A stretch of 64,000 nt of DNA from an uncultured Candidatus Saccharibacteria bacterium. GTDB taxonomy: Bacteria; Patescibacteriota; WWE3; 2-01-FULL-39-13. A model generated the notes under the pieces. That model made no database searches, was not told the DNA's origin, and was given only the letters and a program-made list of their open reading frames with translations. Location: NCBI GenBank assembly GCA_965230915.1, contig OZ246395.1:472935-536934 (forward strand), given 5' to 3'. The position numbers and the translations under genes were made by a program. This document shows, piece after piece, positions 36,853-42,064 of this stretch; positions within the stretch are counted from its first letter, which is position 1, and the number at the start of each line of letters is the position of its first letter.

Positions 36853-38712
36853 AATTTCTTAACTATAAGTTATAATCATTATACACGCATGGAAAAAGCA
36901 TCCACCATCATAAAACTTAAAAAGGGGGCTAAGGAGATAGCCATATTTTTTAATACCTTAGCAAAAACATTAAAATTAGGCTATGAAATTGCACCTATTG
37001 CTACTGTACTTTACTCATTTACATATGTGGTTATTTATCTAACCCCAATTGGAATAAATTATCTTCAGAGTTTATTAATTGACCGATTGGTTTTGTCTGC
37101 TGTCGAAAAAACTCTTACTCGCGATGCGACACTGATTGTGTCAATATTTTTAACTGCGTTCTTTTTAAGAACTATCGTTGCTCTTTATAGCGATTTCATT
37201 GAGAGCAAAATCATTTTTGACTTCGATAAAAAAATTGATTTAAGCATAATTAACAAATATTCCCAGCTCGATCTTGAATATTTCGAAGACCCCAAAACAA
37301 GCGATCTATTGCAAAAAGTCTCAAGCAATGAATACAAAGCTCGAATGTTATATATCACGACACAATACTTAATTGGAGATTTTGCGGCTTTAATTGCAAG
37401 CATAGGAATTGTACTTACTTTTTCTCCTTTTATTTTGTTTCTGATTATTATTTCTAATATTCCAACGTTAATAGCCGAGGGAAAACTTGGTAAAAGTATA
37501 TGGGGAATTTGGGATTACAAACCCGAAGATTTTAGAAACCAAAGTTGGACACGAGATATTTTGATTAGACAAAATTCTTTAAAAGAAGTTCGCGTTTTTA
37601 GAGCTAGGAACTTTTTATATAGCATAGTTGAAAAGCTTTTTAATGAATTTATTGAGTATCAAGTAAATGTAGAAAAGAAGCGCTTTAAATACGAAATAAT
37701 TTTAAGAGGAATACCATTTTTAGTTTTTGCTTATAGCTTTTATTTTTTAGTGAATCAGGTTGTCGCAGGAATTATTACAATTGGGCTTTTTACCTTTTAT
37801 TTTTCAACGTTAAATACTTTTTCTTCAACCTTAAACTCTATGTTTAAACGGTTTACCACTTTATACGAAAATGCGCTTTTTGTTAGTGACTACTTTAAAA
37901 TAATGAACCTGCCTAAATTAGTTAAAGATGGAGAAGTAGTTTTAGAGCCAAATACATCTCCTACAATTGAATTTAAAAATGTCGATTTTAAATATCCACA
38001 CTCGAGTCAATATGTTTTTAAAGGATTTAATTTAGAAATAAAGCCTGGCGAACATATTGCAATTGTTGGAGAAAATGGAGCCGGTAAATCTACATTGATA
38101 AATTTGTTATTGAGGTTTTACGACGCTACAGACGGATCTATTTTAATTAATGGAACTGATCTAAAAGACTTTAAACTTGACTCTTATTATAAAAACATCG
38201 CGCTACTAGGTCAGGATTTTGCTAAATATCACTATGATGCAAAAACAAATATTGGACTTGGGAATATTGAACATATAAATAATCTTCTTGCAATAATAGA
38301 AGCTTCAAAATTTAGCGGGTCAGACAAATTTATTGAAAAATATGAGAAAGGCTATGATCAGATTTTAAATAAACAATTTACTGGTGGAATAGAGCCAAGC
38401 GAAGGTCAATGGCAAAAGATTGCGTTATCAAGGGCATTCTATAAAGATGCTCCAATTTTGATTCTAGATGAACCGACAAGTGCAATTGATCCAAAAGCTG
38501 AATCAGAAATCTTTGAAAGATTGTTCACGTACGCAAAAGATAAAACTGTAATAATTATTTCTCATAGATTCAGTACTGTACGAAACGCAGATAGAATTTT
38601 AGTTATGAACGAAGGACGAATTGTCGAAGAAGGGTCTCACTCAGAACTTGTTGCGTTGAACGGAATTTATAAAGAAGCTTACGATTTACAGAAAAAAGGA
38701 TATTTGGATTAA
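36841..38712 (+). CDS. ABC transporter, fused permease/ATP-binding type I exporter (MsbA/bacteriocin-exporter-like)
   Basis: N-terminal 6-TM domain; Walker A GENGAGKST; signature variant PSEGQWQKIALSRA; Walker B ILILDEPTSAID; H-loop IIISHR. Confidence 0.85.
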   Translation: MRGHNFLTISYNHYTRMEKASTIIKLKKGAKEIAIFFNTLAKTLKLGYEIAPIATVLYSFTYVVIYLTPIGINYLQSLLIDRLVLSAVEKTLTRDATLIVSIFLTAFFLRTIVALYSDFIESKIIFDFDKKIDLSIINKYSQLDLEYFEDPKTSDLLQKVSSNEYKARMLYITTQYLIGDFAALIASIGIVLTFSPFILFLIIISNIPTLIAEGKLGKSIWGIWDYKPEDFRNQSWTRDILIRQNSLKEVRVFRARNFLYSIVEKLFNEFIEYQVNVEKKRFKYEIILRGIPFLVFAYSFYFLVNQVVAGIITIGLFTFYFSTLNTFSSTLNSMFKRFTTLYENALFVSDYFKIMNLPKLVKDGEVVLEPNTSPTIEFKNVDFKYPHSSQYVFKGFNLEIKPGEHIAIVGENGAGKSTLINLLLRFYDATDGSILINGTDLKDFKLDSYYKNIALLGQDFAKYHYDAKTNIGLGNIEHINNLLAIIEASKFSGSDKFIEKYEKGYDQILNKQFTGGIEPSEGQWQKIALSRAFYKDAPILILDEPTSAIDPKAESEIFERLFTYAKDKTVIIISHRFSTVRNADRILVMNEGRIVEEGSHSELVALNGIYKEAYDLQKKGYLD

Positions 38713-39035
38713 TCCTCTTTAACAATTACGTTTTCTAAATCAGATTTTGTAGCAATAATTACGCTAGCAGTTTTATTTCCCTGATCGATTAATTTATATA
38801 ACCGATGTCGGCCATCAATCAAAAGGTTTTCTTCATTAATTATTAAAGGATACTGTGTGTCGGCTTTTTCATACCTTTTAGATGAAAATCCTGACTTTTT
38901 GCTTCGACTAGGTCCCTTAATAAGACTAATGCCTATATTTATTGGAGCTCTGCTTTCTAGGTTCTCGATTAATTTAAAAATATCTATTGTTGTTCCATCC
39001 TGAAAAGTCTTTGTATGAGTGTGTGTATGAGACAT
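38709..39035 (-). CDS. ParB-like nuclease domain protein (small)
   Basis: LLIDGRHRLYKL resembles the ParB/Srx-fold DGxHR motif. The N-terminus is MSHTHTHTKT, encoded by a short (CA/TG)n-like tract. Confidence 0.4.
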   Translation of the reverse strand: MSHTHTHTKTFQDGTTIDIFKLIENLESRAPINIGISLIKGPSRSKKSGFSSKRYEKADTQYPLIINEENLLIDGRHRLYKLIDQGNKTASVIIATKSDLENVIVKED

Positions 39036-39227: not shown

Positions 39228-39413
39228 CTAGCCACGAACGTTAATTCCGAATCCTCTTAGTATACTGGCGATTACTCCCCAGACTACTTTTAAGAGAAGA
39301 GTTATAAGGTAAACAATTACCCTAATTAGCTGAACTAAAGCAAATTCTGCTCTTTTTATCCATTTACCTTTTTGCTGTTCTAACTCGTATTCTTGATCTG
39401 ATGTATATGCCAT
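39228..39413 (-). CDS. Hypothetical small membrane protein (61 aa)
   Basis: One clear TM helix (VIVYLITLLLKVVWGVIASIL) after an acidic N-terminus; it lies between tRNA genes. Confidence 0.35.
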   Translation of the reverse strand: MAYTSDQEYELEQQKGKWIKRAEFALVQLIRVIVYLITLLLKVVWGVIASILRGFGINVRG

Positions 39414-39596: not shown

Positions 39597-39720
39597 AATT
39601 CTTCGCAAGAGGGATTAGCGAGCGACTAGAATTTGGGGTGCAGGCATAGCTCGGCCACCAGTTCATTTTTCTATAATCTCCCCTGCTTCGTCATATTGCT
39701 ATATAATTACTCAGTATTTT

Positions 39721-39797
39721 GCATCCGTAGCTCAATTGGATAGAGCGTTTGTCTTCGGAACAAAAGGTTGCAGGTTCGATTCCTGCCGGGTGCACCA
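39721..39797 (+). tRNA. tRNA-Arg (anticodon TCG), encoded CCA
   Basis: GCATCCGTAGCTCAATTGGATAGAGCGTTTGTCTTCGGAACAAAAGGTTGCAGGTTCGATTCCTGCCGGGTGCACCA; TATAAT-like boxes 20-50 nt upstream. Confidence 0.8.
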
Positions 39798-39819
39798 TGC
39801 CAATTATTTGGAGTTGAAT

Positions 39820-40464
39820 ATGAACGAACTAGATCTGATCAAAGAATCCTTACAAAACGAATTAGAAAACCCACAAAATTACGAAAATTTAATCCACCAA
39901 AGCGCATCGAATATCGCCAATTTGCTTATAATGAAGCCAATCTTTGATAGCTTAAGTACTAGAATTGCGGATCTTAAGAAACGCAACCTTCTTAAGAGAA
40001 ACTATAAAAAAATTCTAAAAAGCAGTCTAATAGAGCTTATAAAAATGCTCGACCATCCAAACTTAAATGAAGATAATGCATTGTTAATTGAGAAATTGAT
40101 AATGGTTTCTTTATCGAAAGAGTCAAAACCAAGTGAGGAACTACTATCATACGAATATTTTAAAATTGCCAAAAACCTGACAGGGAGTGAAATCATAGTT
40201 TTGAACGCCGCAAAGGAACGCTTATACGAGGGTAAATTACGAGACAAAATCGATATAGACGACGTTTATCGCGAGATAGCCGAAATCAGTGACCTAAAAT
40301 TTGTTGTTTTAGTTGCGGATATTGTTCAAAAACTCGCAGAAAAGAAGTTATTTAAAGACAGAAACTCAGCATATTTATATAATACTGACGAAAATTATCT
40401 TTTTACAGATTTAGGGCTATCTTTTATGGAATATTTGGATGCTTACGACACTCTATTTAAGTAG
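39820..40464 (+). CDS. Hypothetical protein (orphan; predicted alpha-helical, Lys/Glu-rich)
   Basis: In-frame ATG with SD GGAG 7 nt upstream. The longer ORF from 39736 would overlap tRNA-Arg and is rejected. No recognisable motif. Confidence 0.5.
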   Translation: MNELDLIKESLQNELENPQNYENLIHQSASNIANLLIMKPIFDSLSTRIADLKKRNLLKRNYKKILKSSLIELIKMLDHPNLNEDNALLIEKLIMVSLSKESKPSEELLSYEYFKIAKNLTGSEIIVLNAAKERLYEGKLRDKIDIDDVYREIAEISDLKFVVLVADIVQKLAEKKLFKDRNSAYLYNTDENYLFTDLGLSFMEYLDAYDTLFK

Positions 40465-40516
40465 TTTAATTTACTATATAATTTAACGGTTCAAAATTGC
40501 CATTTAATGCCCCTTC

Positions 40517-40592
40517 GGGCGCGTAGCTCAATTGGCAGAGCAACTGGCTCTTAACCAGTAGGTTACAGGTTCGATTCCTGTCGCGCTCACCA
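40517..40592 (+). tRNA. tRNA-Lys (anticodon CTT), encoded CCA
   Basis: GGGCGCGTAGCTCAATTGGCAGAGCAACTGGCTCTTAACCAGTAGGTTACAGGTTCGATTCCTGTCGCGCTCACCA. Confidence 0.8.
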
Positions 40593-40627
40593 TTTACTAT
40601 ATTTGTCGAAACTTATTTAATAAAATT

Positions 40628-41092
40628 ATGAAAAATTACTTATATTTATCTATAATAATAGTAATATTGCTGAGTATATATGGGTTCTATTATGGATGGT
40701 ATTTTGCTATTGACTTAATACCAGAAATTCTTAAATTCCTGGTACCCGCAGTAATTTCAATTTTCCTTCTAGATAAAATTAAATTTCAAAGAGAAAGGAG
40801 AGAAAATTTAATACACGATATTCTCTTCGATATGAATGAAGCTACTGACGGCGGAAATCCTTCCCCTTTAACTAAAAGGTTCAATAGTATAGCGATAATA
40901 CATAATGATGATAAGGAAATTATGACTAGATTAAGAGAACTAAAATATAAATTTGCAAATAATGTCGGACATCAATCCGAAAGACAATCTGATTTAATAG
41001 GCTTGGTGCAATTAATTGCAAAAAAATCTGATATATACCTATGTAGAGAGGATATTGAGGTTCAACTAAAACCCGCAAAACGGAATGACTGA
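40628..41092 (+). CDS. Hypothetical membrane protein (2 N-terminal TM helices + cytoplasmic domain)
   Basis: Hydrophobic N-terminus (LSIIIVILLSIYGFYYGWYFAIDLIPEILKFLVPAVISIFLL), then a charged soluble domain. Its stop overlaps the next gene's start (ATGACTGA). Confidence 0.5.
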   Translation: MKNYLYLSIIIVILLSIYGFYYGWYFAIDLIPEILKFLVPAVISIFLLDKIKFQRERRENLIHDILFDMNEATDGGNPSPLTKRFNSIAIIHNDDKEIMTRLRELKYKFANNVGHQSERQSDLIGLVQLIAKKSDIYLCREDIEVQLKPAKRND

Positions 41093-41714
41093 AATACAGC
41101 AATCAAATATATTGATCGAAAAACATTTTGATAGGATAAGAGATTGGGCTATTGGTGATATTAAAAGATGCTGTAATTTTAACCCTGATGGCACTTGCAG
41201 TGATAATGGAGCGTTAGTTGGAGCTTTCATATTATGGTGCTGTGCGATTGATTATTATGGAGGACTACTGACTTCAAACTCAGATGCAGGTGGAGGTACA
41301 AAACATCGAATGGCCGCTTTTATCGGGAAGTATATGCCTATTTATGACGCCGATCTGATTATAGATTTGAGATGGTCTCTCCTGCACTATTACTCTCCAA
41401 ACCATTTTCTTCTGATGCATGAAAATGAAATTGAGCAGGCGCGTAAATTTCATCTTTTACAAACAGAAAGAGGAATTATTCTTCATCTAGGTTGTTCAAT
41501 TCGAGATTTAGAAACTGCTATTAATCAATATGAAGCTGATCTTAAGAGTGATAATAAATTGAAACTAAATTTATATCACTACTATCAAAGCAAGCCAATT
41601 ATTATGCCGGTGAAACAAGTTAGAGTGGGATATTTATCATCTTCAGCAAGTGGAACTGCAATACCTCCCTTATCGGCTTCAGGCACGGTCGGAGAGTTTG
41701 ACTGGTATAAGTAA
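41085..41714 (+). CDS. Hypothetical protein (orphan), translationally coupled to the preceding membrane protein
   Basis: 209-aa ORF with an 8-nt overlap; Cys/Trp/His-rich conserved-looking blocks (AFILWCCAIDYYGG, RWSLLHYYSPNHFLLMHENE); no family recognised. Confidence 0.5.
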   Translation: MTEIQQSNILIEKHFDRIRDWAIGDIKRCCNFNPDGTCSDNGALVGAFILWCCAIDYYGGLLTSNSDAGGGTKHRMAAFIGKYMPIYDADLIIDLRWSLLHYYSPNHFLLMHENEIEQARKFHLLQTERGIILHLGCSIRDLETAINQYEADLKSDNKLKLNLYHYYQSKPIIMPVKQVRVGYLSSSASGTAIPPLSASGTVGEFDWYK

Positions 41715-41921
41715 CTTCACAAATATCTATTAAGTCCTTTTCATACAAACATCCAAATCAACGAAAGTTAGTATTAGTGGAGAACCTTCACTTAGTTTTA
41801 CTTCGGGGTCAAAAAAGTTATCCCACCATAGAATTTCCCTAAAAGCCTATATCATGGTATATTTCTGATATCAAAAACAGAAAAAGTCTTTAAACCTTTT
41901 TGTAGATTTTTTCTGTTTTTG

Positions 41922-42021
41922 CCACCCTAAATGGACGCCGCGTCCATTACAGGATCTCTTCTTCATACTACCGAGGGGTGGTTTTAAGTTCTAGTTTAAA
42001 CTAGATACTATAAAACCACCC
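41922..42021 (+). promoter_or_regulatory. Structured leader upstream of trmD with mutually exclusive pairings (CCACCC / GGGTGG-T-run / CCACCC); candidate attenuator
   Basis: CCACCC (41922-27) can pair with GGGTGG (about 41976-81); that hairpin is followed by UUUU, which is terminator-like. The same GGGTGGTTTTA is the 5' arm of a perfect 11-bp inverted repeat with TAAAACCACCC (42011-21). An inner GGACGCCGCGTCC palindrome lies in the first loop. Confidence 0.35.
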
Positions 42022-42064
42022 TGAGGTAAGATTTCTTTAATCTTTTTAAGATATAATTACATCA

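Follow-up and report, generated by a model that had tools for sequence, protein, structure and literature searches.

Do three adjacent genes of no recognizable family, placed among the tRNA genes of an uncultured bacterium, form a single accessory system, and what do they encode? The genes, here called g1, g2 and g3, lie in a 64,000-nucleotide (nt) stretch of an uncultured Candidatus Saccharibacteria genome (GTDB lineage Bacteria; Patescibacteriota; WWE3; 2-01-FULL-39-13; NCBI GenBank assembly GCA_965230915.1, contig OZ246395.1, forward-strand positions 472,935 to 536,934). This whole stretch is referred to as the window. A first-pass annotation of the window had described the genes as an orphan three-gene cassette, in which an upstream helical protein (g1) accompanies a membrane protein with two transmembrane (TM) segments (g2) that is translationally coupled to an unrecognizable partner (g3). 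Much of the anatomy in that description was real, including the three plus-strand open reading frames (ORFs), their placement at tRNA-Arg and tRNA-Lys, the two hydrophobic segments of g2 and the 8 nt, ATGACTGA, that the g2 stop and the g3 start share at 41085-41092. The lack of a known family was borne out as well: g1, g2 and g3 had no match in Pfam, PADLOC, PHROGs or NCBIfam. The unity of the cassette was not. In the reading that we consider probable, the region is a composite rather than a cassette, and g3 represents an uncatalogued, antitoxin-less HEPN family that is carried as mobile accessory cargo.

A core gene and a strain-specific slot

The g1 gene had a phyletic pattern different from that of g3. 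Three g1 homologs were found at 60-80% identity, and the two that lie on longer contigs retain the gene order of the window, namely a gene for a small TM protein (minus strand), tRNA-Leu, tRNA-Arg, g1, tRNA-Lys, trmD and the genes for a UvrD/PD-(D/E)XK helicase, FemAB, KsgA, HrcA, GrpE and DnaK. Neither of them contains g3. Homologs of g1 were likewise not found beside g3 homologs in the neighborhood set, which comprised about 40 g3-bearing loci from genomes and metagenomes, about 30 of them independent for the counts of upstream genes. Because g1 is syntenic in relatives that lack g3, it is part of the local core; the strain-specific slot consists of g2, g3 and a 350-nt spacer.

Comparison by blastn with one of the syntenic relatives (locus L006) showed homology over 39710-40594, as far as the 3' end of tRNA-Lys, and again from 42063, the start codon of trmD. 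The slot of that relative holds an unrelated 627 nt without g2 or g3, and another relative has an unrelated gene of 155 amino acids (aa) after tRNA-Lys and no g3. Slot contents differ three ways in three relatives, a presence/absence polymorphism at the tRNA 3' flank, and the interval from the 3' end of tRNA-Lys(CTT) to trmD is a hypervariable slot.

The orthologs of g1 open with MNELDLIK, which makes the ATG at 39820 the true start of the gene. The first-pass annotation had seen in g1 no more than helices. The predicted model, which was of only moderate confidence and left the helical N-terminal 100 residues unmodelled, placed a winged helix-turn-helix in the C-terminal half, behind the N-terminal helical region. 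The nearest known domains listed were winged helix domains of the MarR, HrcA and Rio2 types, with no sequence-family match, and g1 is probably a lineage-specific winged-helix protein that binds DNA. A relationship between g1 and a 279-aa protein that recurs upstream of g3 homologs in three loci (L007, L020 and L022) was considered and rejected (hhalign probability 1%).

Fold and active-site signature of g3

HEPN domains have a core of two alpha-hairpins, helices 2 and 3 being separated by an insert, and are defined by an Rx4-6H motif where helix 3 ends and an acidic residue in helix 2; the residue after the Arg is typically, but not obligatorily, polar (N, D or H) (Anantharaman et al., 2013, PMC3710099). 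The structure of g3 was predicted with confidence (predicted local distance difference test score, pLDDT, 88.3). In the model, helix 2 spans residues 44-63 and carries D56, an insert helix spans residues 71-83, helix 3 spans residues 89-100 and carries R96, and H101 is the first residue past it; a beta-hairpin and helix 4 (residues 135-155) follow. The position of the motif, the acid in helix 2 and the insert that separates helix 2 from helix 3 all agree with the published HEPN definition (PMC3710099). Fold matches to g3 included HI0074, AF0298, Csx1, Csm6, the HEPN domain of sacsin, the integron HEPN protein 3jrt and Las1, and HEPN proteins filled the top of the list, above DinB-like matches. 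The best TM-scores obtained with Foldseek, which were non-significant, were those of HepT and AbiV. The g3 product, which had been called unrecognizable, has a HEPN-like fold with an invariant Rx4H.

Conservation was counted, in g3 numbering, over 70 divergent members of the superfamily (alignment A2) and 36 close members. R96, H101 and Y87 were present in all 70 divergent members, and R96 and H101 were also invariant among the 36 close members. Position 56 was acidic throughout the divergent set (D in 64, E in 6). The spacing R.{4}H was found in 70/70, the longer pattern R.{4}H.Y in 56/70, and position 103 was Y or F in 67/70. C53 and H123 were each conserved in 65/70, and the clade from the Candidate Phyla Radiation (CPR) has C30 and C38 in addition. 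The RX4HXY form of the motif is the signature of HepT toxins, the Tyr of which is poly-AMPylated by the MntA antitoxin (PMC7641770).

One subgroup of the superfamily reads LRNKLVHNYS, which is the canonical HEPN form (RNxxxH). Its sub-threshold Pfam matches were to HEPN_Cthe2314 (E = 0.014), Cas_Csm6_HEPN (0.039) and HepT-like (0.23), all three of the HEPN clan, and HEPN was the only Pfam clan that recurred among weak matches. A sequence bridge to solved HEPN structures was sought with profiles A1, A2 and A7 against PDB sequences, and was rejected as coiled-coil noise.

The C-terminal tail of g3 is conserved across the CPR clade, with the consensus SLATGTxIQSIxASGTVxxxxWFKK and a repeated (A/T)(S/T)GT, and was modelled at a pLDDT of 57-58 over residues 180-209. 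A shorter subclade ends instead in ...(Y/F)T(D/E)E(E/D)CD. The tail is a possible regulatory element.

Distribution of the g3 family

Homologs of g3 formed 70 clusters at 42-59% identity, the source names of which were only Woesebacteria, Beckwithbacteria and Microgenomates group; the contig that holds the window measures 945 kb. An exhaustive hidden Markov model (HMM) search with a cutoff of E<=1e-3 widened this to a superfamily with at least 376 representatives. Among 185,579 species-representative genomes there were 6 matches, and the family is distributed essentially among uncultivated CPR bacteria and metagenomic sequences. No database catalogues it, whether Pfam, NCBIfam, PADLOC or the PHROGs annotation; a comparison of 70 superfamily members with PADLOC gave one match only, a spurious one to Cas9 (E = 0.0098). 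A match to phrog_18591, a family without an assigned function, was obtained for ten of the 70 divergent superfamily members (best E = 8.8e-9). It follows that phages carry some of the wider superfamily, although no member of the CPR clade turned up in the viral collections.

Three g3 homologs of about 46-50% identity (L008, L009 and L011) came from metagenome-assembled genomes labelled Gammaproteobacteria or Pseudomonadales, with a locus GC content of 36-46%. Their placement could reflect mis-binned CPR DNA or horizontal transfer.

Genomic neighborhoods of g3 homologs

In about 18 loci the g3 homolog followed tightly behind a gene on the same strand, with a gap of 60 nt or less or a 4-nt overlap. 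The upstream gene was different each time, and included genes for a PNPOx protein, a dCMP deaminase, DpnI-like and DpnII/MboI restriction endonucleases, a pPIWI-associated nuclease, an HsdM/S fusion, DUF6338 and DUF5680. About 5 of 30 upstream neighbors had TM segments, a fraction not above that typical of a proteome. A conserved partner of any kind was rejected, as all-against-all blastp of the upstream neighbors detected only near-identical duplicates. A Pfam census found 103 families among 124 neighbors, none of them dominant. Recurrent families were Xre helix-turn-helix proteins, alpha/beta hydrolases, serine recombinases, ResIII, PNPOx and methyltransferases; HsdM, N6_N4 methyltransferases, AlbA_2 and zeta toxin were also present, and the neighbors of distant members include a RES toxin and RhuM. 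An MNT antitoxin (GSX10DXD) was found neither in the ORFs of the g3-homolog loci nor among the plausible small proteins of the window, and no NTP_transf_2-type family was among the 25 families listed in the neighbor census.

Large serine recombinases lay within 5 kb of the g3 homolog in at least six loci (L001, L003, L007, L009, L019 and L028). Four of about 30 loci, each from a separate lineage (the window, L003, L010 and L032), had the g3 homolog downstream of tRNA-Lys(CTT), for which a simple model gave P of about 2e-6. In the latter three loci the g3 homolog begins 28-1,788 nt past the tRNA in the same orientation, and the tRNA sequences are clearly different. L010 repeats the order of the window, with tRNA-Arg(TCG), one gene, tRNA-Lys(CTT) and g3. 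The first-pass annotation had suggested that tRNA-flanked placement marks accessory or defense cargo. This suggestion holds for g3, which is missing from the sister slots and has restriction-modification (R-M), toxin and serine recombinase neighbors elsewhere, and fails for the three genes as a unit.

Some of the recombinase genes were themselves joined to tRNA genes. Large serine recombinase ORFs of 511-520 aa at L003 4139-5705, L003 10514-12114 and L019 4671-6270 end antisense inside tRNA-Lys(CTT) or tRNA-Leu(TAG), with g3 homologs 1.5-2 kb away, which suggests tRNA-targeting integrative islands in CPR genomes. The two recombinase-tRNA units of L003 are about 6.4 kb apart. Apparent recombinase similarity in L010, L011 and L032 was discarded, being only the antisense translation of the tRNA itself. 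Three g3 homologs were split into two ORFs (L029 3926-4624, L030 3983-4633 and L038 1616-2180), and are either decaying pseudogenes or assembly frameshifts.

Predicted function of g3

As functional cargo, g3 would act as a metal-independent RNase. The predicted site would combine R96 and H101, where core helix 3 ends, with the helix-2 residue D56, and the family-specific Y87, C53 and H123 would probably assist. By analogy with other HEPN enzymes the protein is probably dimeric. Its role may be abortive-infection-type defense, or the addiction of the host to an island, in either case through RNA cleavage. We infer such a role in conflict from the lack of a fixed partner, the R-M and toxin neighbors, the tRNA-integrating serine recombinases and the recurrence at tRNA-Lys(CTT). 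Since RX4HXY occurs here without an adjacent MNT, control would be intrinsic, possibly residing in the tail, supplied in trans, or triggered.

Several observations weigh against this account. Searched at curated thresholds, Pfam, NCBIfam, PADLOC and PDB sequences yielded no significant profile match between the g3 family and a HEPN family, and Foldseek of g3 against the PDB gave nothing at E<2. The residue after the Arg is W97 in g3 and, in the superfamily, C in 40, N in 19, S in 4 and W in 3 of 70, as opposed to the polar N, D or H typical of HEPN. As C53 and H123 are conserved, the chemistry could be another one, possibly metal-dependent, and a toxin with no identifiable antitoxin leaves control unexplained. 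PADLOC-DB v2, which the first-pass annotation had recommended for detecting a defense system, had no model that matched g1, g2 or g3, and the g3 family was absent from the viral, phage and plasmid collections searched (IMG/VR, INPHARED and PLSDB). As to mobility, the window showed neither a tRNA-derived direct repeat nor an att-like copy of the tRNA-Lys 3' end, the slot has no recombinase gene or remnant, and its GC content is not anomalous and gives no compositional sign of foreign origin, so that the argument for mobility at this locus is drawn from the relatives only.

A more specific proposal is that the g3 family is a new, self-contained class of HepT-like HEPN RNases without a linked antitoxin, which keeps the Tyr that MntA AMPylates in HepT, is controlled by its own tail or by an unlinked nucleotidyltransferase and spreads through the tiny Patescibacteria genomes as the single-gene cargo of serine-recombinase islets at tRNA-Lys(CTT), to which a de novo g2 was added in this strain as a regulator or anchor. 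We regard this combination as possible but doubtful.

CPR bacteria (Patescibacteria) have very small genomes, and their defense and conflict genes are little known. The g3 family, of about 70 clusters in a superfamily with 376 or more representatives, has all of the HEPN-type active-site signature and yet is invisible to the libraries in which it was sought, and a g3 profile added to these would annotate hundreds of dark-matter proteins. It also raises the questions of how a HepT-like RX4HXY toxin is controlled without an MNT and why it recurs at the 3' flank of tRNA-Lys(CTT). The hope of a genuinely undescribed system was justified insofar as the family is uncatalogued and resembles accessory, conflict-type cargo. 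It was disappointed in that there is no conserved two- or three-gene system, and the g3 family is a new, unannotated family or variant inside the well-known HEPN superfamily and not a categorically new system.

The orphan membrane protein g2

The g2 product begins with two hydrophobic segments (approximately residues 5-27 and 30-49 by hydropathy), and continues with a basic stretch and then a polar domain of about 105 aa. The K/R-rich residues that follow the second TM segment suggest an N-in/C-in topology, with the 105-aa domain in the cytoplasm. A search of 5.8 billion clustered proteins returned only g2 itself, and no g2-like ORF was found beside g3 homologs in the roughly 40 loci.

Codon scores from a model trained on the long genes of the window were 0.29 for g1, 0.19 for g2 and 0.16 for g3; core genes had a median of about 0.34, and spurious ORFs in the window reached 0.23 at most. 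All three genes scored positive in the annotated frame only, and g2 and g3 scored below g1 and the core genes. It is conceivable that g2 is not a gene at all but a chance ORF in an AT-rich insert, with g3 expressed alone from a promoter just after tRNA-Lys. The lack of homologs would fit this explanation, as would a codon score within the upper range of spurious ORFs, promoter-like matches inside and before g2, and the ease with which AT-rich codons yield hydrophobic segments rich in Ile, Leu, Phe and Tyr. However, the other five frames of g2 scored from -0.26 to -0.75, and the chance of 154 codons without a stop is 2e-5, which corresponds to about 0.2 such ORFs expected per window. The ORF also fills the gap between the tRNA and g3 exactly and ends in the coupling overlap, its domain layout of TM hairpin, basic stretch and polar domain is clean, and an identical ORF was found in an independent assembly. 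We therefore consider a chance origin unlikely; g2 probably encodes a genuine membrane protein that is strain-specific and co-expressed.

The first-pass annotation took g2 and g3 for an obligatorily co-expressed pair. Such a two-component abortive-infection (Abi) or toxin-antitoxin (TA) module, with g2 as the sensor, anchor or antitoxin of a soluble effector, would account for the 8-nt start/stop overlap, which implies co-expression, and for a TM hairpin with a cytoplasmic domain that could contact g3. The below-core codon scores of both genes fit a joint arrival, HEPN-TM combinations are known (PMC3710099), and unrelated TM proteins are encoded just upstream of the g3 homologs in L016 (DUF6338), L029, L039 and L012. 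The wider comparison does not bear the pairing out. No homolog of g2 was found among the 5.8 billion proteins or beside any other g3 homolog; most upstream genes encode non-membrane proteins that are mutually unrelated (PNPOx, deaminase and restriction endonucleases), TM proteins are not enriched among them, and in L010, L001 and L003 the g3 homolog abuts a tRNA or a divergent gene and has no upstream partner. Nor is the overlap a sign of specific coupling, since equally tight arrangements, including 4-nt overlaps, were found behind unrelated genes. Conserved co-occurrence of g2 and g3 had been named as what the pairing depends on, and none was found in other genomes. An obligate module is accordingly improbable. 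The translationally coupled membrane protein is a peculiarity of this strain, and g2 is not the defining partner of g3. As a protein co-expressed with mobile HEPN cargo, g2 may here tether or modulate g3.

Other assignments for g3

Only slightly less plausible than an obligate module, and improbable as well, is that g3 is not a nuclease but another kind of helical bundle, either a DinB-like or Cys-His metal- or thiol-dependent enzyme or a non-catalytic binding domain, in which the R...H pair would have a structural or ligand-binding role. The high conservation of C53 and H123, the additional C30 and C38 of the CPR clade, the non-polar residue after the Arg and the lack of a significant HEPN profile match would all fit such a protein. 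Against it stand the ranking of HEPN above DinB-like folds, the Rx4H spacing that is invariant in 70/70 and stands with a helix-2 acid in the correct topological position, the subgroup with a canonical RNxxxH, and the recurrence of the HEPN clan alone among weak matches; moreover, the His triad of DinB is not recognizable in g3. A HEPN-type RNase remains the assignment that we prefer for g3.

That g3 is instead a CPR housekeeping enzyme of RNA processing, which lies near tRNA genes by chance and matures, for example, tRNA-mRNA co-transcripts, is very improbable: the same-strand run of tRNA-Leu, tRNA-Arg, g1, tRNA-Lys, g2 and g3 without a strong internal terminator, the recurrence beside tRNA-Lys and the existence of RNA-processing HEPN proteins such as Las1 (PMC3710099) could be read in this way, but the two closest syntenic relatives do not have g3 in this slot, and the gene is rare among species-representative genomes, has variable, mobilome-rich neighborhoods and is split in several copies.

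Relation to known systems

A close likeness is to HepT of the HEPN/MNT (HepT-MntA, type VII) TA systems (PF01934 HepT-like/DUF86; PDB 5yep, 7ae2 and 8xdj), with which g3 has the RX4HXY motif in common. Unlike HepT-MntA, about 30 g3 homologs have no adjacent MNT nucleotidyltransferase (GSX10DXD), and the best PF01934 match, that of one distant member at E = 0.23, is not significant. The g3 protein is also larger (about 210 aa), with a beta-hairpin insert that contains H123, a helix-2 Cys and a disordered C-terminal tail, all of them conserved, and the residue after the Arg is W or C in the g3 family but N in HepT.

A second comparison is with stand-alone HEPN proteins of the Abi type (AbiV, AbiD/AbiF/Abi_2, AbiJ and AbiU2) and with the HEPN families of R-M islands (PMC3710099). 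The g3 protein matches no Abi HEPN model in Pfam or PADLOC, and its family, in contrast, is confined essentially to uncultivated CPR bacteria and metagenomes and is not known to give a phage-defense phenotype. HEPN_Cthe2314 (PF18730) and the Csm6 HEPN (PF09659) were the only Pfam families that weakly matched the motif region of g3 relatives (member P0078 at E = 0.014 and another member at 0.039). These matches were well below the gathering thresholds (15.9 versus 27.1 bits), g3 itself had no match, and neither a CARF domain nor a CRISPR context was present.

With respect to mobility, the insert resembles tRNA-targeting islands mobilized by large serine recombinases in that it starts exactly at the 3' end of tRNA-Lys(CTT). 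It differs from them in lacking a recombinase, a tRNA-derived repeat and a compositional anomaly, and the slot is at most a degraded or minimal islet.

Other features of the locus

The features of the locus are listed in Table 1. The hairpin and T-run past g3 possibly mark the end of the transcription unit. No known RNA element was detected in the slot with Rfam, which gave only the tRNAs.

Table 1. Positions of genes, sites and sequence elements at the g1-g3 locus (window coordinates).
Feature	Position	Strand	Description
tRNA-Arg(TCG)	39721-39797	+	ARAGORN; Rfam 72.6 bits; left landmark, synteny kept in L006
g1	39820-40464	+	ORF, 214 aa; genus-specific local core gene, outside the insertion
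tRNA-Lys(CTT)	40517-40592	+	ARAGORN and Rfam; between g1 and g2; its 3' end bounds the variable slot on the left
Second copy of 11-mer ATTTACTATAT	40592-40602	+	First copy at 40469-40479; the pair flanks tRNA-Lys
Variable slot	40595-42062	no strand	1,468 nt, tRNA-Lys to trmD start codon; holds g2, g3 and a 350-nt spacer
g2	40628-41092	+	ORF, 154 aa; orphan, two-TM hairpin and domain of about 105 aa
g3	41085-41714	+	ORF, 209 aa; predicted RNase of the HEPN superfamily
g3 D56 codon	41250-41252	+	Conserved acidic residue, helix 2 of the HEPN core
g3 RWSLLHYY, R96-x4-H101-x-Y103 (RX4HXY)	41370-41393	+	Predicted RNase active site, end of helix 3
g3 C-terminal tail	41610-41711	+	Predicted disordered; residues ~176-209; model and alignment
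Terminator-like hairpin and T-run	41776-41792	+	62 nt past the g3 stop; consensus scan only

The 11-mer ATTTACTATAT occurs twice in the window, where 0.10 occurrences are expected by chance. Its first copy lies within a TATAAT-like box, TTTACTATATAAT, that resembles TTGCTATATAAT upstream of tRNA-Arg at 39696-39708, and the second copy begins exactly at the synteny break with L006. The second copy could be a duplicated promoter (-10-like) element for g2 and g3, or a recombination scar.

The spacer upstream of trmD contains two long imperfect hairpins, at 41861-41932 (34-nt arms, 76% complementarity) and 41969-42028 (18-nt arms, 83%), neither of which had an Rfam match; at the corresponding position in L006 the hairpin is a different one, rich in GC (GGAGGGTCTC...GAGACCCTCC). 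The hairpins of the spacer could be terminators, insulators or a trmD leader. The trmD gene stands alone between the variable slot and the UvrD/PD-(D/E)XK helicase gene, with no ribosomal-protein gene immediately adjoining.

The window (1-64000) contains 14 tRNA genes in 64 kb. A 108-aa ORF at 38709-39035 on the minus strand, placed between the 3' end of an ABC-transporter gene (convergent, 4-nt overlap) and tRNA-Pro, has a ParB/sulfiredoxin-like DGRHR motif and matched phrog_17560 (E = 6.8e-8) and, weakly, ParB-like PHROGs. Between tRNA-Pro and tRNA-Leu, at 39228-39413 on the minus strand, is an ORF for a protein of 61-63 aa with one TM segment, which is probably a real micro-gene because it is conserved in the syntenic relative L006 (67-258, minus strand).

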